Assembly (NCBI GenBank): GCA_036867785.1
Contig: CP145425.1
Location: forward strand, 558,001-622,000
DNA length: 64,000 bases
Reading direction: 5' to 3'
Source of the DNA: Plasmodiophora brassicae
Taxonomy: Eukaryota
Shown here: positions 1-19,669 of the stretch, piece by piece
How positions within the stretch are numbered: position 1 is the stretch's first letter
How the letters are laid out: every line of letters starts with the position of its first letter
Position numbers and translations under genes: made by a program
The notes under the pieces: generated by a model
What the model was told of the DNA's origin: nothing
What the model saw: the letters and a program-made list of their open reading frames with translations, nothing else
The model's database searches: none

Positions 1-2424
1 CAGCATGCGAAGGCGATACAGGCGATTGACGACCTGAGAACAAGTCGCCTTCCGCTCACCATCGAGATATACACGAACATGCTGTCCGTCTACGCAAAGG
101 CGGATCAGCTTGACGAGGCCATGGCCGTGTTCCGAGAAATGGTTGCCCTCAACATGAACGTCGACGAGCCTGTACTTGCGATTCTGGTCACTACCTGCGG
201 TCGCCGCGCGGACAAGCAGAGGGTGAACATGCTCGCTGAGTACGCAGAACGCAATGTGCTCCTGGCGAGGAAGATCGTGTTCACATCGTTCGTTGCCGCC
301 TATGGGCAGTGTTGCGATTTGCCCTCCATTAAGCTGCTGCATCGTTTCGCGTGGACAAGCGGATCGTCGACGCGGCTGCTGCAGGATGAATTTGTCGTCA
401 ACGCGTTCATTTCAGCCTACGGGCACTGTCAGCGCCCGGAAGAGGCGCACGCCCTGTTCTGCACGGTCAAAGCGCCTCGTGTTTCCACGTACAACACCAT
501 GATCTCTGCGTACAGCAACAACGGCATGTTCTCCAGCGCCATATGCGTATTCGAAGACCTGCGCCAGGCTGGCCTCGAGTGCAACATTGAGGTCTACAAC
601 AACGTCCTATCGGTATACGCAAAGGCGAACCTCGTCCCCACAGCGCTCATATTGCTCGACGAACTATCGGCACGGGGCCTGAAGATTGGCTCACGTGTGC
701 TCGCTTGCCTTGTTGCCGGGTGTAACGCGCTGGGGCCTTTAAAGACGCTTCACCAGTACGCGGAGGAGAACGCGCTGCTCTCGAACGACAACGTATTCCC
801 GGCACTGGTCGCGTCTTATGGTCAGTGTCGGGATTTGAAGACGATCCAAACGCTTCATGAGTCAGCGATCTCCAACGGCCTCGTGCGGTACGAATTCGTG
901 GTCAGCGCGTTCATTGCCGCCTATGGGCATTGCGGGCGCCCCGTCGAGGCGCATGACGTCCTTCGCAGCACGCCTCACCAGCGTGCATCGACGTTTAACG
1001 CCCTGATTGCCGCGTACGCGAACAACGACATGCTTGACAGTGCGATTGCGACATTCGAAGAGGTCAAGGCCATGCCGGATCTGGAGGTCACCCTTGAAAT
1101 CTACAACAATGTCCTATCGTTATTCGCCAAGGCGGATCGTATACCAGACGCCATGAACATGTTCGATGAGATGGCTGGTCGAGGGATCGACGTGGGTCCT
1201 CCGGTCCTGTGCTGCTTGATCTCTGCCTGTGGCCGCAATGCACAGACCGCTTTCCTGCGCAAATTGCAGCAATACGTCACCGAGCACGCGCTCCTTCACA
1301 ACAGGGCTGTCTTCAATGCCTTCGTCACCGCGTACGGTCGCTGCTCAGAGCTGTCCAGCATCCAGGACCTGCATCGACTCGCCAGCGAGAACGCCCTGCT
1401 AGATGACATCGGCGTTGCAAACAGCCTCATATCGTCGTATGGGCATTGTGGACATATCGACGGCGCAGAACACCTGTTCCTGTCGTTGAAGGCAGCTCCC
1501 ATTCTTGTCACGTTCAACTCCATGATTACGACGTACGGGTGGCATGGCATGCTCCCGGACGCGTTATCCACATTTGAGCGACTGAAGGCGACGGGGATCA
1601 CGCCGGACGCGATCACGTTGCTGTCCCTGCTAACGGCCTGCAGCCATACAGGTTCCCTCGACGACGCGAACGCGATCGCCGCCGAATTCGAACAGGTGTG
1701 GCGCGTACCTTTCGATGCACGCCACACGAACTGCATGATCAATCTGTATGGGCGGGCGGGCAACCTGGACCAAGCAGAGCACCTTGCCCTGTCGTCCGCG
1801 CAAGCCGACCAAGTTACGTGGACGACCGTCCTCAGCGCGTGCCGCAAGCATAACGACGTCGTTCGTGCGGAGCGTGTCTTTTCCCGCATTCAGTCGTTGC
1901 CCAACGCATCGTCGCATCTCGCAGGCGCCTATGTCATCCTTTCCAGCATCTACGCGTCTGTGCGCCGTCACTCAGACGCGGAACGTCTTCGGGAGGAGAT
2001 GAGGGTCCAGGGTCTTGCGAAGAAGCCACAGGGCGAAACAGCATCGCTCATGCTCCCTGATCGAACGATTCATTTCAGCTCCGATGATACGAGAAACGGA
2101 CCGATGACCGACCCGGATCTGCTGGAAACGTATCGGCGTCTGATGCGGAGCCTGACGGCGTCTGGACATTGGTTGGAGCGGGCAGAAGACGTTGACCGGC
2201 CTGCATCGATCCACGTTGACAAGCTGGTGATCACGTACGCGCTCATGGTGCTGCCGCCTGGCGGCCCCATCCACGTGATGTCCAAGAATCATCGAATCTG
2301 TTTCGAGTGCCATGAAATCGCCAAGGCCGTATCGGTACTGTACAAGCGCGAGATCTTCATCCGGGACACGAATCGTCACCACCGGTTCTGCAATGGCCGA
2401 TGCTCTTGCAACGACTACTGGTGA
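1..2424 (+). CDS. PLS-like pentatricopeptide repeat protein with C-terminal E/DYW (cytidine deaminase-like) domain; 5' end lies outside the window
   Basis: Frame is open from base 1 and intronless. Many PPR motifs (TYNTMISAY, TFNALIAAY, VTFNSMITTYG), E-type region (TWTTVLSACRKH, AYVILSSIYA), and a DYW domain (HVDKL...PGGPIHVMSKNHRICFECH...REIFIRD...HHRFCNGRCSCNDYW*). Confidence 0.95.
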   Translation, partial: QHAKAIQAIDDLRTSRLPLTIEIYTNMLSVYAKADQLDEAMAVFREMVALNMNVDEPVLAILVTTCGRRADKQRVNMLAEYAERNVLLARKIVFTSFVAAYGQCCDLPSIKLLHRFAWTSGSSTRLLQDEFVVNAFISAYGHCQRPEEAHALFCTVKAPRVSTYNTMISAYSNNGMFSSAICVFEDLRQAGLECNIEVYNNVLSVYAKANLVPTALILLDELSARGLKIGSRVLACLVAGCNALGPLKTLHQYAEENALLSNDNVFPALVASYGQCRDLKTIQTLHESAISNGLVRYEFVVSAFIAAYGHCGRPVEAHDVLRSTPHQRASTFNALIAAYANNDMLDSAIATFEEVKAMPDLEVTLEIYNNVLSLFAKADRIPDAMNMFDEMAGRGIDVGPPVLCCLISACGRNAQTAFLRKLQQYVTEHALLHNRAVFNAFVTAYGRCSELSSIQDLHRLASENALLDDIGVANSLISSYGHCGHIDGAEHLFLSLKAAPILVTFNSMITTYGWHGMLPDALSTFERLKATGITPDAITLLSLLTACSHTGSLDDANAIAAEFEQVWRVPFDARHTNCMINLYGRAGNLDQAEHLALSSAQADQVTWTTVLSACRKHNDVVRAERVFSRIQSLPNASSHLAGAYVILSSIYASVRRHSDAERLREEMRVQGLAKKPQGETASLMLPDRTIHFSSDDTRNGPMTDPDLLETYRRLMRSLTASGHWLERAEDVDRPASIHVDKLVITYALMVLPPGGPIHVMSKNHRICFECHEIAKAVSVLYKREIFIRDTNRHHRFCNGRCSCNDYW

Positions 2425-2802
2425 CAGCGGCAGGCGCTCGGCGATTGAAGCGGTTAGTATGACGGCGTTCTAATTCGGCCTGATGAGCGGAAACGCTGTT
2501 TAGCGAAGTTGCCATTAGGTTGTTTTATGTTAATACTTACAGCATGTGCCATGCGGTACAATAAGTATTGTCTGCGGATCGTGCAGCATAATACATTCGT
2601 CAGCGACAGTCGTCGGACTGCAACTCATATTCCTGTTCCATTGGGATATACCCGCACAACCAAAGCGTTCCTGGAAAAGGCCGGTTGCAGCAGATCAGTT
2701 ATCGAAACGCTGTAGTTCTTTCATTTCGTCTATTGTAGTTTATAGCAGGCTGCAACAGAAACCGTCAGCGCGCAAATGTGATAGATGCTCATCGACCTAC
2801 AT

Positions 2803-3231
2803 TCACGAGTCGGCGCCCTGTGCGGTCTGCTTCGGGACTGGCTTGTGAAGGCCTTTGCCGGTGTGATATACGAACCGCGGATGTTTGCATTCAGGGGTTG
2901 GGGCCGGCCGTAATGTCCAGACCTTGTGCTGGCGCTTCAGAACATCAATGAACAGCTTCAGCTTCTTCCCGCTGGCAATCTTCATCAGTGGCGTCCCGGG
3001 GTCCTCCTCGTTGGCCTTGTTCACGATCGATCGCAGGTCGCCGAACGTGATAGGCGCACTGGCAGCCACGACCTTGTACAGCGCATGACTCGTCGACTCC
3101 GGCCGGTTCGCATACCGCGCCGCACGCCGCTCCTTGGCCGTTCCCAACTTCGGCACCGACACCGACTCGGCGTCGACCGTCGCCGCATCCGTGAAGATGG
3201 ACCGCGCCCATCGCGCGCAACGCCTCAACAT
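2803..3231 (-). CDS. Small basic protein with mitochondrial-type presequence; winged-helix-like, resembling mitoribosomal mL80; paralogue of 4920-5264
   Basis: 142-aa ORF starting MLRRCARWARS; core ALYKVVAASAPITFGDLRSIV...PLMKIASGKKLKLFIDVLKRQHKV...FVY aligns by eye with the 4920 ORF. The mL80 resemblance is from memory of the family pattern. Confidence 0.6.
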   Translation of the reverse strand: MLRRCARWARSIFTDAATVDAESVSVPKLGTAKERRAARYANRPESTSHALYKVVAASAPITFGDLRSIVNKANEEDPGTPLMKIASGKKLKLFIDVLKRQHKVWTLRPAPTPECKHPRFVYHTGKGLHKPVPKQTAQGADS

Positions 3232-3658
3232 GACTCCCCGCGATCCACTTCCAAAATGGTCACCCGCGCGCGCTCACCCCGTCGACTGCGTCCTCGACTC
3301 GGCGTCACTGCAGAACTGCATTGCAGTGTGCAGCACGCCGGGTACCCGGCATGTAACGGTGCATTTCAGTGCGACTACGTGTTTTGTGGGAGAGCTGAAG
3401 ATACGGAGCTGCTTGATATCAATGCTGCGTTCTGGATTGTGCGCCTGCGTACGCCGCCAGCCGAGACTGGTATTCCCGGCCGATGCTGGATGAATGATAT
3501 TTATCTGTTCGTATGCCGGGTGGCGCCCAGTCAGCGACTGTTCTCGAGAGAGGGGCCACCCAGTCTCGTTTGTTCTAGGCGGATGCGACCAACGGTATTT
3601 GAGCGGCAGGCGTCCCCGGTGGTTTAGCCATAGTAGCTTTCAGCTGGAGAACGACAAC

Positions 3659-4630
3659 ATGAGCAACTGCGTTTACGCTATCCTGCTGTTGGTAGCCTGC
3701 ACCGCCAGCGCTCTGGGCCAGTATGTGGATATGCGCGTCCCGGCATCGTGGGCTGTCTGCCATCCCGTTGCACCTGGCGAGACCTGCGAATCGGCATGCA
3801 CAGCATCGCCCAGCTGCAACGGGTTCTACGTCGACCCGACCGACTCGTGCAGTTGCCGGTTTATCGGTGCGCCGGTCTGCCTGCTACCTGGCATCGAGGT
3901 GACCCCTGGAACGGAAACCATCTCTGCGCGTATTCGCGCGTCTGCAAACATCGCGTTACCCGAACGTGTCGAATACGACGCGTTTGTACTGAAGATGTCG
4001 GCACCGGCACCGTCCTCGGTCTTCGTCGACCTGGAGGGCACCGTGACATGCGCCGACGTCTGCGCGTCAGGCAAGGTACTGCCTGACTGCGTCCTGTCAC
4101 AGGAGATATCGTACGAGGCGGAGGGGACCGCGACTTCCGCGTGCTGGTTGTTCCCGGCGTCGGCCTGGGACCAGCTGCACAGTTTGAAGCAAATCGACGG
4201 CACTGCAAGCGGTGACGTTCGACGGACAGCGATAACAACGATCGCCACCGACAGGTGGACGCCGCCTCGACTCGACCGCTGCGCTGCGCATCTCGCGAGT
4301 TCCAAGATCGAACCTCATGCGCTCGGGGAGTCAGATCGGCCCCCGATGAAGACGGCGGAGATCAAGGTAGCGGATAGCGTACCGCCCGTCGACGACGAGG
4401 ACACGTCCCACAGTAGAACGTTTCAACCACTCGGCAACATGACCACCGTCGAACAAGTCGTCCTCCTATCCGGGTGCATCGTGTTCCTGCTGTTCCTGTC
4501 CGGCGCCATCGCGGCCGCCTGCATTGCCAAGCGTCGTCGTCGGCATGGTGCACGTGACCCTTGCCGCTGCCACCAATGCCATCCGCCCGCAATCCATCAT
4601 CCGAAGAACGTCACCCATGAAATCCCGTAA
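3659..4630 (+). CDS. Cys-rich type I membrane protein (signal peptide, PAN/apple-like ectodomain, single TM)
   Basis: Signal-like MSNCVYAILLLVACTASALG; motifs CESACTASPSCNGF and CADVC...DC...CWLF; TM VVLLSGCIVFLLFLSGAIAAACIA followed by KRRRR stop-transfer. Confidence 0.75.
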   Translation: MSNCVYAILLLVACTASALGQYVDMRVPASWAVCHPVAPGETCESACTASPSCNGFYVDPTDSCSCRFIGAPVCLLPGIEVTPGTETISARIRASANIALPERVEYDAFVLKMSAPAPSSVFVDLEGTVTCADVCASGKVLPDCVLSQEISYEAEGTATSACWLFPASAWDQLHSLKQIDGTASGDVRRTAITTIATDRWTPPRLDRCAAHLASSKIEPHALGESDRPPMKTAEIKVADSVPPVDDEDTSHSRTFQPLGNMTTVEQVVLLSGCIVFLLFLSGAIAAACIAKRRRRHGARDPCRCHQCHPPAIHHPKNVTHEIP

Positions 4631-4728
4631 TCCCGCTCGATGGGCCAGTATAATACGTAATCATAAAGTCACGAGCGCAGCGCTCGTTCCGCAGCCTGCT
4701 CAGGGGTTCGCAGTTATCGTTCCGCCGC

Positions 4729-4890
4729 CAGCAGTTTGCAGCTCTCGTCCCGCAGTCGGCCCAGCGGTGTGCAGTTCTCGTACCGCAGTCAGCCCAGCGG
4801 TTTGCAGTTCTCGTTCTGCAGTCGGCCCAGCGGTGTGCAGTTCTCGAACTGCAGTCAGCCCAGCGGTTTGCAGTTCTCGTTCCGCAGTCG
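4729..4890. repeat. 33-bp minisatellite, about 5 copies, directly upstream of the 4920 gene
   Basis: Unit approximately GCAGTCGGCCCAGCGGTGTGCAGTTCTCGTACC with alternating variants; degenerate partial units extend back to about 4676. Confidence 0.9.
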
Positions 4891-4919
4891 ACTCGGTGAG
4901 TTGTAAATCCGTGGCGATC

Positions 4920-5264
4920 ATGTTCCGCGTTGTGAGGCGGGCGCTGGCGACTGAGGCGACGGGCGGGCGAGTGGAGATGGTGTGCCGGGCGCTGTACGAC
5001 GTGATCGCGAAGCGCGGCCCGCTCCCGTACAGGCGCCTGTGGGAGATCGTGGCGTACGAGAAGGTGGCGGACCCGACCGGGCCGCTGGCGCGCATCGCAT
5101 CGGGACGCATGCTCAAGTACCTACTGGAAGAACTGAAGAGGAGCAACCAGGTCACGGTAGTGAAGTCGGAACCGGCAAACGATGCCGCAGGGTTCGTGTA
5201 CCGCACGGTGAGTTCCATCCAACACCCTTCCGAAAGCGGACATCCGCACCATAAACTCCCATAA
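4920..5264 (+). CDS. Small basic protein with mitochondrial-type presequence, mL80-like; paralogue of 2803-3231
   Basis: MFRVVRRALAT presequence; RALYDVIAKRGPLPYRRLWEIV...PLARIASGRMLKYLLEELKRSNQV...FVY. Confidence 0.65.
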   Translation: MFRVVRRALATEATGGRVEMVCRALYDVIAKRGPLPYRRLWEIVAYEKVADPTGPLARIASGRMLKYLLEELKRSNQVTVVKSEPANDAAGFVYRTVSSIQHPSESGHPHHKLP

Positions 5265-5414
5265 CATAATACCCGGCAGGTTCGTGTGCGGCCAGGAGCG
5301 TGGCAGCAACGCTGGTTGTTGCCTTCCGTCCCAATTGCTACCGACGCAAAACGGTCGCACAGGTGACAGGCCACGGTCGTTTTGGTTCGGGCCCTGTCAC
5401 TTGTCATTGTCGAC

Positions 5415-7130
5415 ATGATCACCGAGCTGGTGCTTGGGGCGGCGCTCCGTGCCGCGCTCATGGCGGCCGGGTCGGCTGAGATGCTGTCGAACGCCGTCGA
5501 GCTGGTCGGTCCGACAACCAGCTACAGGAGAGGTATGGCGGGGCGACTGTGGGACACGGTCACGGCAGGCTGAGGCAGCGCGTTACCAGTGCAGGAGGCG
5601 CTGTATCTGAATGCGCGTCACCTATCGATATACGATGGCGACGTGTTCCATCAGCCGCCGCTGGTGTTCGAATTATTCTCGGCGCTTGAATCCATCGGGC
5701 TTCGCGCCCTCGTGCCCGGCGTCTTCATCGCTATCGACGTGATAATTGCCGTTCTGTTCCACGAGATCGCAAGAATGAACAACACGTTCAATTTCCCGCT
5801 AACCATCAAGTAAGTAGTGGTACGACTCCACATTACAGGACGTTGACCTGGGGGCTCACCGAAGGGTGCCGAATCGTGCGGAGAACATGAACTCTTCCAG
5901 CGGCATGGAGTACGTGGTGTTGCTTGTGTATGAATGGCATGTTCGTCTGGCTCGTGCATGCTGCGTGCTGACATACCTGTCGTCTAGATATTTATTCAAC
6001 CCACTGACCGTCCTGTCGTGCGCCGCGATGTCAACGTCGTTGCTGACGCACCTGTTTGCTGTCATGAGCATTTACCTGGCGTTCAGAGGTTCGCTGGACA
6101 GTTCGTTCCACCTCGCGCGTTATGCGATGCTCATGCCAGCGGCAGGAAGACCGACCCTGCTGGGGTTCTGCATAGCGGCTGCCACGTACTTGGAGCTTCA
6201 CAGTGCTTTCCTGATCATCCCCGGTGTACTGCTCTTGCACTTCGGCAGCGTAGTACAGCCTATGCCAACAACGGCAATATCTACTGATCATGATGCTGAT
6301 CGGATTCCAGACCTGCCACGGTTTGCGGTGAACCCGCGAATTCTGACATGTATAATCAGTGCCCTTCTCTGGTACCCCGTGTTGGTCGTACTCTCAACCG
6401 CTGTATATGGGTACGTTCTTCACCAGGTATTTCGCAGCTGATGCTGACTGCTCTAGAAGATCTTGGGAATGGATTTCTCATAGCTACAAGTACGTCTTCG
6501 CCGTCATGGATTTATCGCCAAACATTGGCGTTTTCTGGTACTTCGAGACGGAGATCTTCAATCGATTCCGAACGTTCTTCCTGGTGTGCTTCCACGCCCA
6601 CGTATGCGTGCCCGTTGACGTACGTCTTCCGGTGCTAACGTGTCATGTTCAGGTCCTTGTGTACCTTATTCCGCTGACTGTCCGGTTCTGGCACAATCCA
6701 CTATTCCTCGGTTTCGTGTGCGCCCAGCTTGCGAACCTGTTCCAGTCGTACCCGGTTTTAGGCGACTATGGCATATCGTATCCACTGTTGCTTACGCAAT
6801 GGGCCATTCTGAAGAGTGGGTCATAACGCAAACGTGGTCTTCGCTGTTTCTTATTCGGCTGTGCCAGAGATGCGTCCTATCATCCCGGTATACGTTGGAT
6901 TGTTGATCTCCTGTACGCTGGGACATATGACCTGGTTCCTGTGGATTCACGCTGGGTCTGGAAACGCGAACTTCTACTACAACCAGACTCTCGTCTGGGG
7001 CTTCTGCAATGGCTTCCTCGTGATAGAGGCAGTCTCTGCCGTCAGGACACTCTATACCCTTGCCGATCCTTCACCGCCTCCAACAGAGCATGATGGTGCT
7101 GACCAGTCCAAGGCCCCTGTCGCCCGATAA
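5415..7130 (+). CDS. PIGU: GPI transamidase subunit PIG-U/GAB1 (multi-exon)
   Basis: Exon motifs ELVGPTTSYRR, YDGDVFHQPPL, YLFNPLT, DLSPNIGVFWYFETEIF, LWIHAGSGNANFYY. Confidence 0.93.
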
Positions 7131-7261
7131 ACATCATTGCAGACATACGTATCCTGTATGACGCCCATTGAGCGTTAATATCGTTAGACGACGCCATCTG
7201 CAGCATGAATCTGCCGGAGCGGATATCGCCAGTGGCATTGGCACGCGCCATCAGCACAACA

Positions 7262-7566
7262 ATGAGTGACCCAGCGAAACCCATCACGATTGACGAGGTG
7301 AAAAACCACAAAGGCGACAACTGGATCGCCATCGGCGGCTCTGTCTACGATGTGAAGGCCTTCAAGAACAGCCACCCGGGAGGGAAATCCATTCTCGAGA
7401 AGCATTCGGTCGCAGTGGACTGGGTCGCTGCCCGTTCTTGCATCTGATGCTGTCGCCATTGTAGGGCACCGATGCCACTGCTGCATTCGACAAAGTCGGG
7501 CACCCCCAGGAAGCGAAAATCGCCATGGCCAAATTCAAGATCGGCGTACTCGCGAAGGCCGCCTGA
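7262..7566 (+). CDS. Soluble cytochrome b5-like protein (intron 7409-7464)
   Basis: WIAIGGSVYDV...HPGG...|GTDATAAFDKVGH; both heme-ligand His present; no C-terminal membrane anchor. Confidence 0.92.
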
Positions 7567-7651
7567 TGATCTACTCCTCCAAATACATTCGAATCATCCC
7601 GAGGCGCCTCCCAGTCGTCAGCTTCGTGTTGAGCATTTATTCTTGGAAGGA

Positions 7652-7968
7652 TCATGAGCCGTCAGCAGTAGATGACGTGACTGGCGGCTGCGATGGTGTC
7701 TCTGCAACCTCCACAGAAGGCGTCGCAGACAGCGACGGGAAAGGTTTCGCCAGGTTAACGAGCAACCGCTATATATTCGTAGCAGTCAGCACGACAGCCC
7801 GCGATGGGCAGCATTCGCCGTTACCGTGTACGCGTCCCGTTCGAGCTCAAGCATCCTTCGCAGGCACTGCAACTCCTTACGATCGCGCGCCCACCCGTCC
7901 AGCAGCATCTCCCGTTCGGTCAGCCACGCCTGCTGCACCTTCTCCAGCTGGTGCACCGTGAGCCCCAT
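7652..7968 (-). CDS. Small hypothetical coiled-coil protein (one intron)
   Basis: MGLTVHQLEKVQQAWLTERE...ERDAYT spliced in phase 0 (GTAACG...TAG) to RLLVNLAKPF...DGS*. Confidence 0.45.
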
Positions 7969-8077
7969 CCACCCCCGATCCCGTCTGGACGCAGCCCCGT
8001 CCCTTATCAGCACCCTTTGCCCATGGGTTGCAGTCGCGCAGTGTAACGCTTTGCACTGGCCACTCGGGCCGGGACGT

Positions 8078-8139
8078 TGCAGTCGCAGGCGGGCAGCACA
8101 TTGCAGTCGCAGGCCGGGCTGTACATTGCAGTCGCAGGC
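8078..8139. repeat. Three spaced copies of TTGCAGTCGCAGGC in a divergent intergenic region
   Basis: Exact 14-mer at 8078, 8101 and 8126. Confidence 0.85.
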
Positions 8140-8227
8140 GACTGTCACAAGTGACGCCGGTGACGCGTCCTGCGCGTAGTATTTTTGGATCAGAGCGCTA
8201 TCGGGTTGGTGGTGTGGGTGTCCGTCG

Positions 8228-9287
8228 ATGAGGACGTGGGAACGATGGCTGCTGCGGATGGCGAGGCAGGGCAGCATCCCGGAGCACGTCGCGTTCATCA
8301 TGGACGGCAACCGGCGGTACGCGCGGCGTCACGCGCAGGCACCGACCGCCGGACACGAGCAAGGGACGTGCACGCTCGAGTCGGTCCTGGAGTGGTGCTA
8401 CGAGGTCGGCGTCCGCGTCGTGTCCGCGTTCGCGTTCAGCATTGACAACTTCAGCCGGCCCGCGTCTGAAGTTGCCGGTTTATTTGACCTGTGCGAGCAA
8501 AAGTTCCGCCAACTGTTTCAAGGGTTCCTCGTGCTGCTCTCAAACTGTTGGCCCTGTCTGATGCTGCATGTGCGTCCAGGGACGCATTAGACAAGTACGA
8601 TGTGTGCGTTCGCGTGCTCGGCGACATATCCAAGTTCCCGCCGTCACTGCAGGTCTTGATGGCTCGTGCCGTCGTCCTGTCAAGAGGAAATCGCGGCCCG
8701 ATTCTGAACCTGTGTTTCGGGTATTCGTCGGAAGCGGAAATGGCCGCTGTCGGAGGCATCATCCACAAGGGCATATCTGCCAACAAGCTCGAACCCAGGT
8801 AAGCATGATCGGATGACCCATCCGTCCCCTGTTGATTTCGTTTGAGCTACAGTGATGTCGACGAGGAGCTGTTCAGACGATGCACGTTGTTTGAGGATTG
8901 CTCGCCGCCCGGTCTGCTTCTTCGTACGTCGGGGGAAACGAGGTAGGCATGCCTGTCCAACTCCTGCATTCGTTCTCGTGCTCATCGGCGGTGATCAGGC
9001 TGAGTGATTTCATGCTATGGCAAGTCCGGTCGTCCTGCCTGTCGTTCTTCCCGATCATGTGGCCGGAACTCTCCATCTGGTGGTTCCTGCGCGTCCTGTT
9101 CGAGTACCAGATCGCCCTGACGCGGATGCCGCCGCGCTCATCTGCGACCCGCGCCGCACCTGCGACCGGCGATGCAGAAGGTCGAGCCCGGATCGACGCG
9201 TTTGTCGACGAGGTCCGCCTCCAAAGACATGCCACGATGTCCAGGATCCTGTCGAATGATACATGCAATGCGCCAGCGTCGGCGTAA
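8228..9287 (+). CDS. DHDDS: cis-prenyltransferase / dehydrodolichyl diphosphate synthase (multi-exon)
   Basis: [45 protein letters not shown]. Confidence 0.95.
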
Positions 9288-9545
9288 TCGTCTACCCCTG
9301 TCGGGCGTTATGCAGCCTTGCGGGCTGCCCGAATTTGAGCTTACTACTGCATGCAGCTGAGCAGCACAGGTCGACGCCGCGTCAGTGCTTCCGACCGTCG
9401 CCAGACTTCTGGAACAACCGGTCCCAGGGTGTCGGGCACCCTGGCCCGTGGACCACAACGAGACAGCGGGCCGACCGTTCAGCGTGGTACTGTCGTCGCA
9501 AAGGCACCAACCGGTCAGCGCTCTTCGACGACCCTCGATAGCGGG

Positions 9546-12050
9546 ATGGAATCGCAGGACGTTCGCGTCGACGTTGCCGCCGTTGAGCCGCCCAAGAGCC
9601 CGTCCCGGAGGGTGCACTTGACCTGGGACAACGTCCAGTACAGCATTCCGGTGAAGGTCGGCAAGAAGACTGAAGAGCGGGCGCTGCTGAAAGGCGTCTC
9701 CGGCGAAGCCAAACCTGGGCAGCTGTGCGCCATCATGGGGGTACGCCGCCTGCGGGCGCTGTTCGTGTCCCGCCCTGTCTGACCCGCCCATTGCATAGAG
9801 CTCGGGCGCCGGCAAGACCACGCTGCTGAACGTTCTCGCTGGGCGAATCGACGTTGGAAATGTATACGATCAGGACGGGCGTGCCTGTCTGGAGCGCTGC
9901 TGACTGCAAGCGCGTACAGCTGTCGGGCAGCATCCTCGTCAACGGGGACCCGCGGACGGAGTCGACTTGGAAGAAAACGGTGGCGTTCGTCGAGCAGGAC
10001 GACCTGATGCTGCACAATCTGTCGGTTCGCGAGACGCTCATGTACGCGGCGATGCTGCGGTTGCCATCGTCCGTCAGCAAGGAGGACAAGGCGAATCGCG
10101 TCGAGAAGATCATCGAGCAGCTGGGCCTGAAGAAATGCGGTATGAATGCCCAGCTCAACGTCCTCATCGGTCTACTGAGCCATGGCGTTTCCATTCCAGC
10201 CGACTCCTGGATCGGCAGTGTCGATACGGCGCGGGGCATCTCCGGCGGCGAACGGAAGCGTGTCTCGATTGGGATTGAGCTCGTCACCGACCCGTCGTTG
10301 CTGTTCCTCGACGAGGTCGTACCGCGCCGTGCATCGTCGCTGTGCCACTCAGGATCGTTCGTGCTCAGCCAACGTCGGGGTTGGACGCGTTCACTGCCTG
10401 CACCGTTATGGACGTGGTCAAGAAGGTGGCTGTTGCCGGGAACAAGACCGTGCTGTGCACGATCCACCAGCCGTACGTCGACGCGCTAGACCTTGTTAGG
10501 CGAATCTAAGGCATCCGTGTGCAGGCGCTCTGAGATCCTGGAACTGTTCGACTCGATCATCCTGCTGGCCGGCGGCAAATGCATCTTCGTGGGCAGCGTC
10601 GACGCCGGCGTGCAGCATTTCGCATCGCTGGGCATCAAGTGCCCGCCGCAGACGAACCCGTCCGACTTCTTCCTGGACACGATGACGCTGGATTTCCGGT
10701 CGGACAAGCTGAAGGAGGAGTCGGCCGCCCGCATCAAGGCGCTGCAGGACAAATGGGAATCGATGCCCCGAGAAGGTGGGCAGCCGGCGCTGAAGCTCGA
10801 GGAGGCCCCCAAGGCGTGCGAGACCTGGACCGCACAGACCGACTGGAGCAACTCGTTCGTCGTGGAATTCCTCATTCTGCTCGACCGCGGGTTCAAGGAC
10901 CTGCTGCGCAACCCGGCCAACATCGGCGCCTCTATGGGGCAGGCCACCATCCTCATCATCATCGTGGGTCCCGTGTGCTCCCCCTGCCAAACCCTCCCTG
11001 CTTATATGTCGCTGTCGACAGTTCGGCGCCCTGTTCTGGCAAGTGACGCTGGATTCGGCCGGCGTCCAGAACCGTATCGGATTCCTGTACGTTTAAGCGA
11101 CGTCATGCTGTTGCTGTCACGCGTGTGTGTTAACCGACCCGCCCTGCAGGTTCATGATCACGATCAACCAAACGTGGGAACGGTTGCCGCCGATGGGCCA
11201 TCATCACGCATCTGACCGATTCAATTGGTAGGTTCGGCGTTGTGATGCCCATCATTGGCGTTCTGCCCGTCTCGAAGTACGTTGCTGGTGGTGCTCGCGT
11301 GTTCCAGACGTAGCGTCTAACGCCAGTGCAGGGCGCTGATTCGTCGCGAGCGGTCTGCTGGGACGTACCGGGCGGGATCGGCGTTCCTGGCGCGGGTGAT
11401 CACGGGCGGTTTCCTGCCGATCATCTCCTGTGTCTACCTGACCGCCGTCGTCTACTGGCCGATTGGGCTCCGGAACTCGGCCTCCCAGTTCTTCATATTC
11501 GTCGGCTGCGTGTCCCTGCACTCGTCCGTCTCCAACGTTCTGTAAGCACCGGCCGCGCTCTCGCTAGACGCGTCAGAGCCTGAAGTGAACGCCACCCCAG
11601 GGGCATCATGATCGGGTCGATCGTGCCGAACCCGTTCGTCGGGCAGATCGTCGGTACGGATCGCCACGTGCGTAGCCGGTTGCCGTCGGCGGAACTGAAC
11701 GCGCGCGCGTGTATACAGGCCCACTGTTCATCATGATCATGCTGTTGTTCGGCGGCATGCTCATCAACGTGTCGTCGATCACCCCGGCGCTGAGCTGGCT
11801 CAAGTACTTCTCCACGATCCGCTACGCGTACTCGTCCATCTCGCAGAACGAGTTCAGGGACCTGAAGTTCCGCTGCCCGCCCAATGGCCAGTGCTTCGCC
11901 ACAGGGGACTCCGTCCTGACGACGTACGGCCTGGAGGACTACTCGATCGCCTGGAACTGTTTCGCATCGGCCGTCATCGGCGTCGGGTTCTTCCTCATCG
12001 GCGCCTTCTTCTTCGCCGTGAAGACCAAGCCAAGCCTTCGCCTGCGATGA
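9546..12050 (+). CDS. ABCG (White-type) half transporter (multi-exon)
   Basis: LLKGVSG, AIMG|SSGAGKTTLLN (Walker A), ISGGERKRVSIG (signature), LFLDE, TIHQP, NPSDF, then an ABC2 membrane domain. Confidence 0.96.
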
Positions 12051-12347
12051 GTTCCGGTTGCACCCGGTCCTGGACGACTCCCGCGAATACAACCCTGGGC
12101 GCGCGTTCCCCGTCGCCTGCATTTCTGTGCAGAGTCCAAAGTCGCTTCCCTCTTCTGTGTCAACCAGGAGATACGGAGGTGTTGTCGTTAGAGCGCGCGT
12201 GTTGCTCATGATGTGCTCCTGAACGTCCTTCCGCGGTTTGTTTTTTGTGCCGTACACCGGTCACGCCACAAATAGCTGCAGTCGCCCCCCGGTGGCAGTG
12301 GCCGGGTGTGCAGCCCGCACGGCGCTGTCGGGATGATTCCATCGGGA

Positions 12348-13920
12348 ATGATGTGGCGGACGGCGACGACGGGCGCGTACGCCGGATGGATGTGCGCCCG
12401 GGTCGCCGTCCGCCGATTCGCGTCTCGCTCGACGTCGTCGTCGTTCTCGCTGGTCCCGTTCCGGTTCGACCGTCGCGCGGGGCCACTGGCGAAACGGGAC
12501 GATTGACGCGCGCCTACCTACATAGGTTGTCGACCGATGACGCCCGCCGCGTGTTTCACGACTTCTTCCAGAACATGTGGCTGGCGCCTGAGGAGGTGCG
12601 AAGCGCGGCGAACGTTCGTGGGTGCCGCGCCGTGTTCACGCCGTACTGGGCGTACGACGTCCAGACGGAGACCACCGTCGAAGGCGTACGTTCAACGTAG
12701 ACTACGTCACCGTCGGTACCCATTCGTGGCCCCTCAGGACATTGGCCGCCGATCACCGGACGGCACAAAGATCTCCTTCTCAAGCGCCCGCCTTCGCAAA
12801 CCGATTCGCAGCCACTACTCGAGCGATTTGCCCGAAATGCAAATCTACGCCGGGTTCTCGCTCAAACGTGCCAACGCCCAGATCCTCAAGGTCGGCTGGT
12901 TCGAACAGTGCAACACAGTTCTGTTGATCAACGGCCGCTGGGCCCACCTACGTAGGTCCCGCTGTCGGCGGTAAAGCCGCTCAGCCCATCGACGGTCTAC
13001 GGGCAGGAAATGGAGCCGTTCAGTATGGACCGATCGCGCGCCCTCGTTCGTGTATTGCGACACGTGAAGGCGGTCGAGCAGCGCATGGCCGAGCGGGAAC
13101 TGCTTCGTGCAACGGGGGCCGCTGCCTGCCGTAATGTCACCGTTGATGTTCGGGTGACACACACCTGGAGGCGGGTCTACTTTCCAGCGTACGTCTTTGA
13201 TTACAGCCACTTGGGAAGCGATTTCACTGTATGACGCAACGCGGTGGGCTGGTGGTGATTGTCTGAGCGGGTTCCCGTATAGGTCGTCATCAACGGGTTC
13301 AACGGCAACATCTTCGGGTTACCTCAGTTCTCGGCGGTTAAGGTCGCCCTGGCGGTTGCGTTCCCAGTGACCCTGATCCTGCACAGCCTCGAAGCGTCGC
13401 TAAACCTGCCCCTGTACGTGGCGTGTGTCGCCATCCCGTCAGCGTTTATCGGCTTGGCGTGCAAGTTCCTACCTGGGTTCGTCGCGCAGCGTCGCGAAGC
13501 ACAGCGCCTTCAGGAACAGCAAACAGAAAGGTGTGGTACCTGGCGTTCATGTCGCCCGTTGCTGACCATCGGATGCACAGTACATACTCCGCTGACTTCG
13601 AGGAAGAGTGGGACAGCGAATCGCGTACACAGTGGGATCGAAGGGAACAACGATACCAGGAGCGGTATCGGCCGCCGCCGCACGTCTCCAGGCAGGCGTC
13701 CGACCTGTACGACTTGATTGGCGTCAAGCGAGATGCCAGCCTGGCTGACATATCCCGAGCGTTCCGTGCGCAAGCACTGAAGTACCATCCCGATGTTCAC
13801 GCCAACGAGTCCGATCAGGCGGAGGCAGGGAGGCGCTTCACGAAGATCGTCGCCGCCTACCAAGTCCTTCGGGACCCAGTGAAACGAGCCAACTACGACC
13901 GCACCGGCCGAACAGGCTGA
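12348..13920 (+). CDS. DnaJ protein with C-terminal J domain and probable organellar presequence (multi-exon; start approximate)
   Basis: DLYDLIGV...ISRAFRAQALKYHPD...AYQVLRDPVKRANYD; upstream exons include PYWAYD, VYFPAYVFDY and a TM segment. Confidence 0.8.
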
Positions 13921-13981
13921 CTAACTATACCATTCGTCGAAGGACCAACCCCTATGTTTATTTACAGCCGGATATAATAGC

Positions 13982-14960
13982 TTACGGAGCGCCGCCCGTC
14001 GTAAAGACAACAGCCAGCTCGACAACGAACAAGACAATGGTGAGGCCCGTCAGCACTTTCCGGGCCGTGTTCTCCTTGGCCGAGTACGTGTACTTCTTCA
14101 CGAGGCCGCCACCAATCAGCAACCCATAGACAAGGCCACCTGCATGATGGTCCACGTCAGAATCGCCAATGCCAGACCGATCGATGGAGGGCAACGTACC
14201 CAGGTGCGCGTAGTTATCAATCCCGGTGCTCGTTAGCCCCAGCCCGAAATTGAGTACCAACAGGATGATGATATTGCAGAGCCTCTACGATCGGGGAGCG
14301 CATCACATTACGACGCAGCAAGCGAGACCACCCGATGCCACTAACCTGGGGAGCGTCAGGCAATTCGTTCCAGTTGAAGACGATGTAGGATATGATTGCG
14401 CCCAGGAGACCCATCAGCGCACCACTGGCGCCCACGCTGATGGCTTCCCCCAACGTCGCCGACGTCAAACTGGCGCCGACGCCGGAGACCCAGTAGATCA
14501 CGGCCATACGCGACGTTCCCCAGAGCGCTTCGTACACGAAGCCGATGTTGCATTGGAAGACAAGGTTCAGGCCAATGTGGAGCAGGCCAGCGTGAAGAAC
14601 TACGGCCGAGAACAACCGCCAGACCTCGTAGTGCTTGATCAGTTTCAGCTTCTCGATGGCACCCATCGCCAACAGGGTCTGGGAGCTCGGGCCAGCCATG
14701 CTGTTCGCCTTGACGAACGCTCCGTCGCGCGTCGCACCAACGATCAACGTGATGAGGAACATGACGACATCGATGGTCGACATCACGCCGATGAACGAGC
14801 GCCAGCGCGCCTGCGGGAACATGATCTCCTTGATCGACGGCAGCACCGGCAAGGCCATCGGGGCGACGCCCCCCGACGGCACTGCGCGGGCGCCGCCCAT
14901 GCCGCTGCTGCGCCCACCATCGCTCTGGTCCTCTAGGTCGGCCAGGCCACGAACTACCAT
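13982..14960 (-). CDS. Rhomboid intramembrane serine protease (2 introns)
   Basis: EVWRLF, HAGLLHIGLN, catalytic VGASG, GIDNYAHL|GGL. Confidence 0.95.
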
Positions 14961-15520
14961 GGCGACGACAACGAAACACGTTCCAAGTCGTCGGCCACTA
15001 CGCAAAAATAGCGTTTTGCGTCGACAGTGACTGACACAGGGCCGCGCCGGGTCGGCGCCGGCGGCCTCGGGAACCGTTTGCGACGCATTTTGTCCGCGAC
15101 AGTGACGACGTTACCCGGATTCTGACCCAGCACACGCGTTGCCGTCGTCGTTGGGTAACCCTTCGGACAGGTCTTGCGACCCCAAGATCCAGAGTCCAGC
15201 AAAGCCGAATATTGCATACGCTGCGATCGACTCTGCTAGGTGGCGCTCGTCGTGAATTGACCGCTGCCGTCGGTCGAGGGGATCATCACGCCTGCCACCG
15301 TCGGGTTGCATCCTCAGCTGTCCAGCGCGCGTGACCCACGCCTACGTCAACTCCACGAGTAGGTGATACCTTGTCTGAAATCGCTCGCAAGCCATGTGTT
15401 AACTGATACCACAGATAACAGGTCGTTGCTGGTGCGTGCAAACCGGTCGACCGCGTGACCGGTGACGCGCACGGGAACGTCCTCGAACCGTCGACCAATG
15501 CAAAACGAGTCGGTACTAAT

Positions 15521-16175
15521 TTATTCCCATTCGTCTGCTTCGTCGTCCTCGACGGTGACTTCGTATTCCTGTTCAATCTCCTGTCCATCGTCGGACATGT
15601 CAGCAGCGCGCCAGTCCTTCGCCTTGGCGTCCATCATGTACCCGTCGCTCAGGACTGACCATTGCTTGTCGGCGTCGTCTGCAGGTGCCGTCGATTTCGT
15701 GCGGCCGGATTTTAGCATGTCAAAGAACTTCGCTTTGGAAACCTTATCCGCGGCCGCTACTTTCGATGTGGCTAGAGCGGCAGGTTTCCTATCTTGCATC
15801 AGCTTCTGTTGCGCTGTGACGGCGTTAAATAAAGTAACCACTGCACGAATATTGACAATTAGCGTCGCAGGTTACGCACAAACAACACTGGCGATTACCT
15901 CCTTTCGTTGCTGTCCGAATAAGAATCCGTTCCAGCGCACCGTCCGCCTCGTAGTCGGTGACGGGCGCATGCTCTTTCAGGCGAAGGAGCTTCTTGAGTT
16001 TGCGCTCCTTTCGTTTGGCGCGGAGTTCCTTATCGACCGTGGGCAGCGATTTCCGCACGGCGACGTCATGCTCGCAGGCGTCCGACCTCCTGCTCAGCAG
16101 GCCCGACAACGCATTGCCGAATGCGGATGGCGCTGATGATACCTCGGTAGAGGGAGCCGTCTGAACTTTGCTCAT
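15521..16175 (-). CDS. RRP15: Ribosome biogenesis protein RRP15 (one intron)
   Basis: ERILIRTATKG|VVTLFNAV, KAKFFDMLK, WSVLSDGYMMDAKAKDW. Confidence 0.85.
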
Positions 16176-16857
16176 GGTCGTTTGAGAACGTGACCCAGCA
16201 CGCTGCCCGAGTCCGCTGCGGTGTCCGCCACGGACTTCCCTGCTCCAGCCGTGGAACGACGCGGACGATGTGATCGACTGGGACGACGACGCCCGTGCAA
16301 GGGGCGCGTCCCATTCGCCATGGACTCACTGCTGAAGTCGCCAATGGGCCATGACGTTCGGTAACCGCAGCATCGGCGATTACGTCCTGATGCTGCGCGC
16401 TGACGGCATCCCACCGACGGCCCCGCGTCGGGCGACGACGCTGCGCGCGACTCGTCTGTTCAAGGTCGAGGAGTTCGCGGCGTGTGTCCCGTCGGATACG
16501 CTGGTTGCCATCGGATCGGAACATTGACTTGTTGCCGTTTGTTGCGAAGAGGGCGCTCGCGAATCGGAACAGTAACATCGGGAAGGTCACACGCCGGTGC
16601 CCGGTCGTCACCTGCAGCAACGAGCTGTGGGCCGTCGGTGCCCCGGTACGCCGCGAGCGTCACCGCCTGGTCGTGGAGTGTCGACGTACCAGTCACGATA
16701 TCCCGCGCCTGCCGCCGCCGACTCCCTACTCCAGGCTCTGCACCAGCTGACATGGGCCGGCGCAATGCAGAAGGTGATGGCGATGCAAGTCCAGCGACTC
16801 CCGAAGCCGATTGATTCGCTAGATGTGTCGAAGACGTCGTCCATACGCAAGTAAGCG

Positions 16858-17303
16858 AAGCTGTTTAATGAGGCCTTGCTGTTAGGATTCTCTCCGAGTG
16901 GTATGGCTTCACCGGTGTCCCTCGGGAATCCAGTACATCTACGTCGTCCGACAGCCTCTGGAGCATGATGAGCAGTGCCGGAGGCGCTTCTACACCTCAG
17001 AATGCGTATGACGAGGTCGACGCATTCTATTCGCAAGCCGTTGGGGATTTGCCTGACCTGGATCTGGTCACTTGGTGGTATGTACGCAGGGACCAGGTTC
17101 CATACCAATACCGCTTGTCAATGGACATCTTGGCGGATACTGGTCCCTGCGTACATACCACCAAGTGACCAGATCCAGGTCAGGCAAATCCCCAACGGCT
17201 TGCGAATAGAATGCGTCGACCTCGTCATACGATTTTGGAGGGATACCGCTGAAGACGTTCCTCTCGGAGAGGATCCTACCAGCAAAGCCTAACTAAACAA
17301 CTT
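16858..17303. mobile_element. hAT transposase C-terminal (dimerisation domain) relic present as two inverted copies
   Basis: The + strand reads STSTSSDSLWSMM...YDEVDAFYSQAVGDLPDLDLVTWWYVRRDQVPYQYRLSMDILA, matching the hAT-type E.d.Y....D.l.WW.....fP.l..la.diL pattern, then breaks into its own reverse complement. Confidence 0.7.
17005..17231. repeat. Perfect 92-bp inverted repeat (17005-17096 / 17140-17231) with 43-nt loop
   Basis: Arms are exact reverse complements by base-by-base reading; diverged outer arms at about 16858-16923 / 17238-17303. Confidence 0.95.
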
Positions 17304-17954
17304 CAATACGTGTTGGAACTGTTGGCAAACGCGACAATGGCCGATCAATGTGAGAGAAAGGCATCGTGAGGTAGGTCGCGTCATTATGCAGATACGCAGC
17401 GCGTTCCCAACTTGTTAGCATCGGAGATGATGGCATGGTCACGATATACCGATGGCTTTGACGAGGAAGTTCACAAGGAGGGTATCACCGCGTGACAGAA
17501 TACCGCTGTGCGGGTTCCCAGGGCTCGTATCCAGCAGGAGAAGATCTCAAGCATAACTGGGTGGGTATCGCCAGGCAACAGCCGTGCAGCGTGGACGATG
17601 CAGCACCCGATACCTTCAGCAAATCTTCGACTCTCCTTCGTGAACTCGCCATCCGCTTTGAATCGCAGGGCATCGAACTCACGTCGGGTGAGCGACGACA
17701 GAGGGCGCCGTGTCGTCGGAAACTGCCGCTACTTGAAGGGCAACGGCGACGTCAAGCCCGCCCCATTGTCAACCGCTTTGCCGGCCACCGACGATGCCGA
17801 CCCTGCTGCACGCCAGACGCGAACAGCGTGTCGCATCGCCACGTAGGTTGCGAATGCAGCCGATAAACCGACCCGCCCAGCAGGTCGTCCTGGTGGTGAA
17901 CTGCTGCTGATGGAAGACAACCGCACCGGCGGCGCCGGTCATCAGAGGTGGGCC

Positions 17955-17959
17955 AAAAA
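17955..17959 (-). terminator. Pol III oligo-T terminator of 5S rRNA
   Basis: TTTTT directly 3' of the 5S on the minus strand. Confidence 0.8.
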
Positions 17960-18079
17960 GGTTACATCACCATGCGGTTCCCCGGTGGTCCCCCTCCCGA
18001 GTACTGAACAGGCCAAACACCATTTGGCTTCGCAATTCGGAATGAGATACGGCACATTCGGTGTTGTATGAACGTAACC
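17960..18079 (-). rRNA. 5S rRNA, solitary copy
   Basis: 120 nt GGTTACGTTCATAC...CCGAATTGCGAAGCCAA...AGTACT...GGGACCACCGGGGAA...GTAACC with terminal helix GGTTAC/GTAACC, immediately followed by TTTTT. Confidence 0.93.
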
Positions 18080-18920
18080 GTCAGAGGACAGCGGCTCGGC
18101 TAATTCGAGGTCGCCGTCTGTTGATGGACGGCTCGGATGGGCGCTACATTGCCGCCTCAGGTGCGAGCAGCAACGATGAAGTGCGGTTGGCCCGTTTCGG
18201 AAAAGGGCATTTGCAGTTGGGGCGGACGGTTCATCTTATTGGGGTGCGCTGAGTCAAGGTCGCGCACGTCACTATTCGATGCGTCCAGGTGCACGCCCAA
18301 TACCCGCCGCCGTCCAATCGATAATTACACCGGACACCAGACGTGTGCTATTCAATCACGAACGACCGAATCGGATTCCGCTTCATGGATTCGATTGGAT
18401 TGTAAGGTTTCCAGGTTGTACTGGTGTGCACGCAATTCGAGGTCCTCGATCAGAACTTGTCGCCCAGTTGCGGGAATGAACACGTCCGTCCGAGGCCCAA
18501 TCCAAGTGGGAATCAAACCCACCCTGCCGTTGAACATTCGCGGTACATACCGGTACCAATATGTCGACGCTGACTGCGCAAGTTGGTCTCTCAGAAGTGT
18601 CTTCCATGGTTTATATACCTGGCGTATCGTTGCCGCCGTCTAGCTCGAGTCTATTTACAAATAATGAATTGAGAAGCGCCAAGTAACGTCGGCAGTATGA
18701 TCGCGTTCTGCGCGGGGATGCCGGCCTGACGATAGTGAAGTTTCGGTGTCCGTGACCAATTCGTCCAGATAATGAGACCATCCCCTGATGCCCTTACGTC
18801 GTCAATTCTCTGCAGCCATTTATACTGTCTGCACCCTCTCTCTCTCTGTCTGGACCTGCACTGCGGACTACAGCGAGGGGAACGCGATAGAATCAGCGTT
18901 GATGCTACGTACGCCTGACG

Positions 18921-19669
18921 CTATTGTATTCGTTCAACGATCTCGAGGAATGTGGCCATGAACCGATTATAATCGTTGACGTCGAACGGATACGGGGAGA
19001 AGCGCGCTCTCTCGTATTGCTCGATGTAGTCCTGTGCCAGGTCGTCTGCAATGCCCGGGAACTCAGTCTGCAGGTATCTGCAGATGATCATCAGCCACAC
19101 AGCCCGATAACCATGCGCGTGAATACGAACGCCATGAAATCACGAACGCTGCGGAAATCGCGATGCCGGGTACCGGGCCTCGGCACTGATGCGGCCTCTT
19201 CCAGGACCAAGTACGATTTCGCGATTGATGTCTTGAAGTGCACGCCCTCCAGATTGGGCCCGTCGGGTGCGCTTCGGCCCCAGCCGTTATCCCCCTCTCC
19301 GGGCCTTCCAATTAGTGTCAGGCCCCCACCCTGATATCGGATACGTACGCGCGATTTCTACGATTCAGGGACCAATGACGCTTTGATGCGGTGCTCACGA
19401 ACAAGCTCGTTAACCATCGCTTGGTACATTCTCTGCAAAGCAGCGTAGCGCATTAGAAAATGTGTGAGTTGCCTGGGGCGTTGCTGTACCCGTGGCATAT
19501 CAGTCCTGGCCAGGGGCATTGCCTCGCGAGGGATCTCGGCGCGCAACCGGGCCACGGTCAGCGCACGTTTACGCTGAGCGGCGTACAGCAGGAGGACGGT
19601 GAGCGCCAGCAGGCTCGAGAAGATGAAGTAGTGCGCCGGCTGGATATTGCCCCACGACCGGTACGCCAT
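18921..19669 (-). CDS. DLT1/NICE-3-like N-terminally anchored membrane protein (2 introns)
   Basis: N-terminal TM (FIFSSLLALTVLLLYAA); spliced core NGWGRSAPDGPNLEGVHFKTSI...RSVRDFMA|YLQTEFPGIADDLAQDYIEQYERARFSPYPFDVNDYNRFMATF. Not captured as a single ORF in the track. Confidence 0.65.

Follow-up and report, generated by a model that had tools for sequence, protein, structure and literature searches.

The genome of Plasmodiophora brassicae carries a gene for a pentatricopeptide repeat (PPR) protein that ends in the E1-E2-DYW module of plant organellar RNA editing factors. The 3' part of the gene occupies positions 1..2424 of the plus strand of a 64,000-nt stretch (contig CP145425.1 of assembly GCA_036867785.1, forward-strand positions 558,001 to 622,000), which was analyzed at its full length and is referred to here as the window. 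It is a member of the PPR-DYW kind and is native to the P. brassicae nuclear genome, and sequence comparison places it in a large, monophyletic, lineage-specific family of DYW proteins that is newly described here. Cytidine-to-uridine (C-to-U) editing in plant organelles is carried out by DYW-type PPR proteins, whose scattered presence outside plants is an evolutionary puzzle. P. brassicae belongs to the Phytomyxea (Endomyxa, Rhizaria), forms biflagellate zoospores, and lacks a plastid, such that the mitochondrion is its only DNA-bearing organelle. An earlier note on this DNA had pictured a plant-editing-factor-like gene in a non-plant protist, perhaps a plant-intracellular parasite, and the naming of the paralogues as Plasmodiophora brassicae bears this out. 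The reading we favor, while giving it somewhat less than an even chance, is that the protein would recognize sites in mitochondrial RNA as part of a C-to-U editing system, while catalysis would come in trans from paralogues in which the catalytic HxE motif is intact.

The window begins inside a single open reading frame (ORF) of 807 codons that is open at its 5' end and terminates with ...RFCNGRCSCNDYW followed by TGA. A protein search returned a full-length protein of 1189 residues (P0001) that is 100% identical over the query, with residue 1 of the window frame corresponding to residue 383 of the protein. The first 382 codons therefore lie upstream of the window, and the gene as a whole is unspliced and intron-less. 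Positions 1..2424 are thus the C-terminal 807 codons plus TGA of a 1189-codon gene, as judged from the ORF, the identity with P0001, and the RNA contigs described below. From end to end, the protein consists of an Arg-rich N-terminus, a family-specific N-terminal PPR module (hereafter the N-module), a long PPR array, and a PLS-E1-E2-DYW end of the plant type. A Pfam scan of the 807-residue frame detected the PPR (E 1.3e-65), PPR_2 (E 3.3e-56), PPR_1, and PPR_3 families, followed by the E_motif family (PF20431) at residues 617-676 (E 8.5e-8; 32.8 bits against a cut-off of 27.3) and the DYW_deaminase family (PF14432) at residues 737-807 (E 8.3e-21), the latter matched only over profile positions 24-93 of 93. 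The PPR-E-DYW identity of the frame is far beyond chance.

The plant-like portion of the protein is its C-terminal 351 residues (1369..2421, plus strand). In a phmmer comparison, a single alignment block joined residues 457-807 of the window frame to residues 262-612 of 9kfx_A, a synthetic PPR-DYW protein of plant-consensus design (205 bits), and the PLS9-PPR and PLS3-PPR designs were also matched by the C-terminal residues. The alignment with 9kfx is collinear throughout, which assigns this end to the plant PLS-E1-E2-DYW type. PLS-type tandem PPRs were recognized from the Pfam families together with the matches to 9kfx, PLS9, and PLS3, and the array upstream of them is described below by its five-motif super-unit. 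The E motif (E1+E2) lies at 1849..2028 (plus strand; PF20431), and the DYW-type deaminase domain, supported by PF14432, AlphaFold2, and Foldseek, runs from a degenerate PG box to the terminal DYW at 2020..2421 (plus strand).

The array itself (1..1599, plus strand; ~305-915 in protein residues) is made up of a ~172-residue super-unit of five motifs repeated ~3.3 times. Approximate borders between the super-units fall at nucleotides 283, 805, and 1330, with the first unit beginning upstream of the window. The repeat was revealed by BLASTP of segments against the protein itself, in which copies appeared at offsets of 168-175 and 341-344 residues with 38-50% identity; self-comparison of the whole protein returned the identity match only. 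At the DNA level, Tandem Repeats Finder detected no repeat of the array in nucleotides 1-2600. The array represents an old tandem amplification of the 172-residue block, and two paralogues (641 and 718 residues) lack a corresponding ~560-residue insertion.

Closer inspection of the DYW domain revealed a mixture of intact and altered elements. The zinc-binding residues are all present: H738, C767, and C770, with CxxC and the following His forming the motif CFECH (2299..2313, plus strand), and the second zinc site and DYW tail forming RHHRF ... CSCNDYW plus stop (2374..2424, plus strand). A Lys five residues before CxxC is likewise kept. At the catalytic site, on the other hand, the motif HxE is replaced by HVD (CAC GTT GAC; 2212..2220, plus strand), which aligns under the HSE of 9kfx, DYW1 (7w86), and OTP86 (7o4e). 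The His zinc ligand of this motif is retained and the catalytic Glu has become Asp (codon GAC). HVD is also found in the corresponding protein from a second assembly, and the RNA contigs carry no other letter there. The PG box, KKPQGETASLML (2020..2055, plus strand), is degenerate when aligned to KKEPGC--SWIE of 9kfx, and Pfam profile positions 1-23 went unmatched. Finally, gaps relative to 9kfx and the paralogues reveal a shortened gating-domain beta-finger region directly before the catalytic motif (2164..2211, plus strand); the stretch before HxE is 8 residues shorter (6+2 gaps) than in 9kfx and 9 residues shorter than in the paralogues P0002 and P0020. The earlier description of a PPR array with a complete E/DYW module ending in CSCNDYW and a stop thus stands for the array, the E motif, and the full-length DYW domain; the HVD, the degenerate PG box, and the short beta-finger depart from it.

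An AlphaFold2 model of residues 594-807, based on a 42-row alignment, reached a predicted local distance difference test (pLDDT) score of 89.8 and a predicted template modeling (pTM) score of 0.78. Confidence was lowest in the beta-finger region (block 131-140, pLDDT 62). When the model was searched with Foldseek, the matches included 9kfx_A (E 8e-14, TM 0.73), the OTP86 DYW domain 7o4f_A (TM by target 0.81), and DYW1 (7w86), and the DYW fold is accordingly predicted to be retained. Published work bears on each of the three altered elements. The E894A and E894Q variants of OTP86 are inactive, making the Glu essential, and removal or replacement of its beta-finger markedly lowers editing (Takenaka et al. 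2021, PMC7611903). A P2A change in the PG box strongly weakens PPR56 (PMC10482289). Because the window protein combines Asp for Glu with a shortened beta-finger and a degenerate PG box, its own deaminase, judged from sequence, is more likely to be weak or dead than active.

The protein is one of many of its kind. A family profile made from the window protein and two paralogues was run against 1.84 billion representatives and gave 28,747 matches at E <= 0.001; the family counts reported here are drawn from the best 150 of these 28,747 and describe those representatives rather than the whole genome. Membership was defined by a single-domain score >100 with a hidden Markov model (HMM) of the N-module (~270 residues), built from three sequences including P0001. 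The separation was sharp, with 59 of the 150 scoring >100 and all others <=35. P0001, itself among the source sequences of the HMM, scored 483.6 at residues 47-322, upstream of the window. An E2/DYW end was present in 39 of the 59 N-module representatives and absent from 20; with P0002 added, the corresponding totals are 60 members and 40 with this end. For 24 family clusters a name was at hand or was sought: 22 are named P. brassicae, mostly under the title 'DYW domain-containing protein', and the remaining two are unnamed ENA sequences (P0165 and P0202), the sole carriers of the N-module outside named P. brassicae; a further 35 clusters were counted by their N-module score. The number of DYW-type members in P. 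brassicae is at least 19 (18 named clusters plus the window gene) and may be as high as ~38. The median best identity between family representatives is 43% (range 37.5-52), and on this divergence the diversification of the family is old.

The N-module is annotated as PRORP/PROP1-like by the sources, and it occurs with and without the DYW end; it could possibly be a common docking or RNA-binding module. Several NCBI entries for the family are titled 'unnamed protein product (mitochondrion) [Plasmodiophora brassicae]' though the genes are on contigs of ~1.1-1.9 Mb. These titles look like a labelling artefact and carry no evidence of location.

The active-site change in the window protein has many parallels within the family. 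HxE is kept in 24 of the 40 family DYW domains and in 47 of 48 non-family sequences. The 16 deviating family domains comprise HxD (2), HxV (3), HxT (2), HxA (2), HxP (2), HxC (1), RxE (3), and QxE (1), and some of them have also lost CxxC. The Glu-to-Asp change recurs in a second paralogue, whose cluster shows it in each of its 5 members. Spacing from His to Cys is 28 residues in 26 of the 40 and 26 residues in 1 of the 40. When both H..E and C..C are considered among the family rows of the tree described below, 20 of 37 keep them; the other 17 have longer branches (median stem-to-tip length 2.16 versus 1.82; one-sided Mann-Whitney p 0.005, on rows that are phylogenetically non-independent).

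To place the family, a DYW-domain tree was computed from 117 rows and 145 columns (IQ-TREE quick search, LG+G4); it is unrooted and has few columns for the number of rows. Of the rows, 37 were family domains. The other 80 were plant or unnamed sequences, drawn from the non-family representatives (45 of 55 eligible) and from similarity-search matches (35 of 84 eligible); 3 of the 40 family DYW domains were left out as incomplete domain matches. All 37 family rows fell on one side of a branch with a Shimodaira-Hasegawa-like approximate likelihood ratio (SH-aLRT) value of 99, which shows a single origin of the family DYW domains relative to the 80 other sequences. At 1.07, the end branch of the window protein's DYW domain is long compared with the overall median of 0.55. 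Named best matches outside the family are flowering plants at 29-36% identity. A search with the DYW region of P0002 gave 9 matches (itself, one paralogue, and plants or unnamed sequences), the number for the family-profile search being 15, and no other named phytomyxid (Spongospora, Polymyxa) was among the matches of any sequence search. As far as these sequences can tell, the single origin combined with the old diversification excludes a recent transfer from the host.

Several observations tie the gene to the parasite genome. Its GC content at third codon positions (GC3) is 0.72, inside the range of its neighbors (0.52-0.89), and its relative synonymous codon usage (RSCU) correlates with that of five neighboring coding stretches at r 0.92. 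The same protein is encoded in a second assembly (P0121) with 7 amino acid substitutions, all of them upstream of the E/DYW end. Among 24 candidate sequencing runs from 6 studies, 20 contain every sampled word of the stretch. None of the runs is recorded as RNA, and their nature was therefore judged from spliced contigs by comparing 4 runs from 4 studies with window positions 1-20000. In 4/4 runs, contigs skip introns of 49-65 nt in neighboring genes, each with GT..AG or CT..AC ends (15 junctions were listed, with 24 more), and this skipping of short neighbor introns identifies spliced RNA as the source of the contigs. In every run, one contig of 4378-4546 nt matches window 1..2749 with 0 mismatches and includes the splice junction 2749>2801. 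At their other end, these contigs reach 1162-1231 nt upstream of the window start, equal to the missing 1146 coding nt and a further 16-85 nt ahead of the predicted ATG; RNA-derived contigs therefore contain the complete ORF in unspliced form. Contig cover is near nil in 3-4 runs at bins 3336-4669 and 16676-17342, and these bins were not used as evidence.

Directly behind the DYW gene lies a convergent minus-strand gene (2425-3241; ORF 2803..3231), whose 142-residue first ORF has no Pfam match. The segment skipped by the RNA contigs, 2750..2800, is 51 nt long, starts with CT, and ends with AC, and is therefore an intron of this minus-strand gene. Since one RNA contig runs through both genes in 4/4 runs, their 3' ends abut or overlap.

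The N-terminus of the full-length protein, MYRRVHAVNVVVHVRYRRGRRFG..., contains 8 Arg and no acidic residue in its first 31 residues. By a heuristic hydropathy measure, the top 10-residue window in the first 70 residues scores 1.71 (VHAVNVVVHV) and sits inside Arg-rich sequence, so that no hydrophobic core of the kind found in signal peptides, and expected of a secreted effector, was detected. Among 44 family members with a Met start and an extension before the N-module, the extension has a median of 6.5 basic residues and 1 acidic residue, and 27 of the 44 have >=4 basic and <=1 acidic residues. By its composition, the N-terminus thus resembles a mitochondrial presequence.

Taken together with the active-site changes, these features suggest how the protein might work. 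It would enter the mitochondrion, where its PPR array would read one particular stretch of a mitochondrial transcript and, in the manner of plant editing factors, position the E1-E2-DYW end at a cytidine lying a few bases further downstream. The window protein would then act mainly as the site-recognition subunit, and deamination would be carried out by a paralogue that keeps both HxE and CxxC. Because 24 of the 40 family domains keep HxE, catalytic partners exist. Mitochondrial C-to-U editing as such is likely to occur in P. brassicae, given the family size and partial conservation; the location, RNA target, editing reaction, and help in trans that we infer for the window protein itself make up the more tentative reading proposed at the outset. 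A broader version, to which we give a lower chance again, is that P. brassicae, and probably phytomyxids widely, may possess an unreported plant-type mitochondrial C-to-U editing system with the largest DYW family known outside plants, in which ~40% of the members are pseudo-deaminases borrowing catalysis from paralogues, so that a split editosome like that of flowering plants would have arisen a second time, independently. No link between Plasmodiophora or Phytomyxea and DYW proteins or editing was found in the literature searched, mostly open-access journals; papers there that bring together P. brassicae and PPR proteins deal with host genes or name the proteins in general terms.

A number of points weigh against the proposal. 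To our knowledge, help in trans has been described only in flowering plants. Asp is the most conservative substitute for Glu, such that the enzyme may still work, and the literature consulted on DYW catalysis yielded no test of a Glu-to-Asp change in a DYW domain. Mitochondrial targeting is read from residue composition. The contigs are unstranded, leaving the RNA strand over the ORF unreadable, and one contig across two genes does not amount to one transcript. Transcripts were mapped in the e3 mitogenome paper, which reports no editing in its available sections ('RNA editing' appears only in a reference title; PMC6823432), and in the eH mitogenome preprint, where the word 'editing' appears 0 times in the portion available (bioRxiv 10.1101/335406); neither source states that editing was looked for. 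The unusual start codons described in the two papers are TTA, TTG, ATC, ATT, and GTG, none of them the ACG that editing would repair (PMC6823432, bioRxiv 10.1101/335406).

Some of these points would equally suit a protein that binds a mitochondrial transcript for splicing, end formation, stability, or translation, with the DYW domain now structural in role or surviving as a decaying remnant. Introns are unusually numerous in the P. brassicae mitogenome, which spans 114 kb with 32 protein genes: there are 54 of them, including 41 in 12 genes of the respiratory chain, and little is understood of how they are spliced (PMC6823432). The 20 family representatives without any E2/DYW match, the 16 of 40 domains that deviate in HxE (17 of 37 tree domains when CxxC is counted) and their faster evolution, and the silence of both mitogenome papers on editing in their available sections all fit such a maturation factor. 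However, free decay is at odds with the retention of the zinc ligands, the second zinc site, the Lys before CxxC, and the DYW tail, as well as with the high-confidence predicted fold, and the 24 intact HxE motifs would be difficult to account for if no family member had deaminase activity. We therefore regard a function unrelated to editing as rather unlikely for the window protein. The opposite alternative, an autonomous C-to-U enzyme that uses Asp as the proton shuttle and handles both recognition and deamination of its site, as moss PPR65 or PPR56 do, gains from the conservative nature of the substitution, from its presence in both assemblies and in all members of the second paralogue's cluster, and from the intactness of every zinc ligand; lone moss PPR-DYW proteins are capable of editing in E. 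coli (PMC6397227). Yet three catalysis-related elements deviate together in the window protein (Asp, a beta-finger 8-9 residues short, and the PG box), its DYW domain has the long end branch noted above, and in OTP86 Ala or Gln at the Glu position abolishes activity and loss of the beta-finger markedly reduces it (PMC7611903). An enzyme that is self-sufficient in this way is accordingly doubtful in our view.

Action on host rather than parasite RNA, raised as a speculation in the earlier note, would require delivery of the protein into the plant cell and binding or editing of host mitochondrial or plastid RNA. The parasite does live within plant cells, the C-terminal 351 residues are plant-like, and a 2026 study on clubroot reports night-time up-regulation of host PLS-PPR genes and raises, as speculation, the idea that host organellar editing is manipulated (PMC13247141). 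That study, in its available sections, deals with host genes only, however, and the Arg-rich N-terminus without a signal-peptide-like core, mostly shared by the family (27/44), disfavors secretion. Moreover, ~60 diverged N-module members fit the service of the parasite's own 114-kb mitogenome, and a host-directed effector is very improbable. Least probable of all, with a chance close to nil, is that an assembly error placed host-plant DNA on a parasite contig or that the gene came from the host by a very recent transfer. The flowering-plant identity of the named best matches outside the family might suggest such an origin, but these are just 29-36% identical, the N-module is common to 58 other representatives, and the family forms one clade in the DYW tree. 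Codon usage (r 0.92) and GC3 (0.72) like those of the neighbors, the presence of the gene in two assemblies, and the RNA contig that joins it to a spliced parasite neighbor in 4/4 runs likewise dispose of the idea that its 5' end is chimeric with host DNA, and the host-contamination reading was rejected. The same RNA contigs answer the related concern that the gene might not be expressed.

The window protein resembles land-plant PLS-class PPR-DYW proteins (DYW:PG; PPR65/PPR56, OTP86, and 9kfx) in the order of PPR array, E1-E2, and DYW, which is collinear over 351 residues, and in its zinc ligands, second zinc site, DYW tail, and predicted fold. It differs from them in being non-plant and only ~30-36% identical, in having HVD for HSE, a degenerate PG box, and a shorter beta-finger, and in carrying a 172-residue five-motif super-unit where the plant proteins have plain P-L-S triplets. 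The N-module that marks the Plasmodiophora family scores <=35 in all other proteins compared, including named plant ones, and the family reads RHHxF and PGRTSLxL where plants have RFHHF and PGCSWIEV. Flowering-plant factors that lack a working deaminase and rely on DYW1, DYW2, or MEF8-type proteins in trans offer a parallel to the proposed division between recognition and catalysis, with 16 of the 40 family domains having lost HxE and 24 having kept it. In flowering plants, however, the recognition partner usually has a truncated DYW domain, whereas the window protein keeps the whole domain and its zinc sites. The MORF/RIP helpers are specific to seed plants (PMC13386178).

Outside plants, the nearest comparison is with the paradinids (Ascetosporea, Endomyxa, Rhizaria), which have PPR-DYW proteins together with massive C-to-U and adenosine-to-inosine (A-to-I) mitochondrial editing (Yabuki et al. 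2025, PMC11946409); the available sections of that paper do not mention Plasmodiophora. Both lineages are parasitic members of the Endomyxa with DYW-type PPR proteins of predicted mitochondrial location, and C-to-U editing has been shown in the paradinids (PMC11946409). The numbers are very different, with 1 and 3 sequences in paradinids (PMC11946409) against tens of members in the Plasmodiophora family. Paradinids and fungi also both lack two residues between H28 and C56 (alignment positions 43-44; PMC11946409), in contrast to the plant-like H-to-C spacing of 28 in 26 of the 40 Plasmodiophora domains, the paradinids being compared here by the paper's description. Other non-plant carriers are Naegleria and other Discoba, Amoebozoa, Malawimonadidae, some fungi, and rotifers, with Rhizaria not listed in the available sections of the source (PMC13386178). 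They are alike in the patchy occurrence of plant-like DYW proteins outside plants, usually discussed as horizontal transfer. The families of these lineages tend to be small, with ~ten genes in Naegleria; if that holds throughout, the Plasmodiophora family would be the largest outside plants.

The family has several implications. Tens of DYW genes in a rhizarian crop pathogen predict many editing sites in a mitogenome that has been hard to annotate, with fragmented gene predictions, TGA read as Trp, and non-ATG starts in the e3 version (PMC6823432). If editing exists, the published P. brassicae mitogenome gene models and protein sequences would need revision. The co-occurrence of 24 intact and 16 degenerate HxE domains in one genome bears on the evolution of deaminase-dead recognition factors, and a second endomyxan lineage beside the paradinids becomes available for comparing transfer with inheritance. 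Since public RNA and DNA data exist for P. brassicae, editing should be easy to check.

The remainder of the window contains no second member of the family. Pfam matches among the neighbors include PIG-U, cis-prenyltransferase, ABC2, DnaJ, rhomboid, cyclophilin, protein kinase, S10 carboxypeptidase, and RRM families, as well as WD40, isocitrate/isopropylmalate dehydrogenase, porphobilinogen deaminase, and Tra1. These housekeeping families, together with the 49-65-nt introns skipped by the RNA contigs, agree with the earlier picture of intron-rich protist housekeeping genes on the same contig; the axonemal genes that were also claimed found no confirmation, as no axonemal family was detected among the 100 ORFs and six-frame pieces scanned with Pfam. 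The product of a 378-residue ORF at 3494-4630 (plus strand), without a Pfam match, could be a secreted or surface protein: it contains many Cys, shows N-terminal hydrophobicity following an internal Met, and has a C-terminal segment resembling a membrane span. At 17800-18230, RNA contigs of single runs show several loose ends and small differences, with one base inserted at 17815, one deleted at 17955, and A>G at 18007, which suggests isoforms, strain differences, or a repeat. Finally, a multi-exon gene of the Tra1/TRRAP type (Tra1_central, Tra1_ring, and FAT) extends over 52946-62092 (plus strand) in the low-GC end of the window, where GC is ~0.52-0.55 compared with ~0.6 elsewhere.

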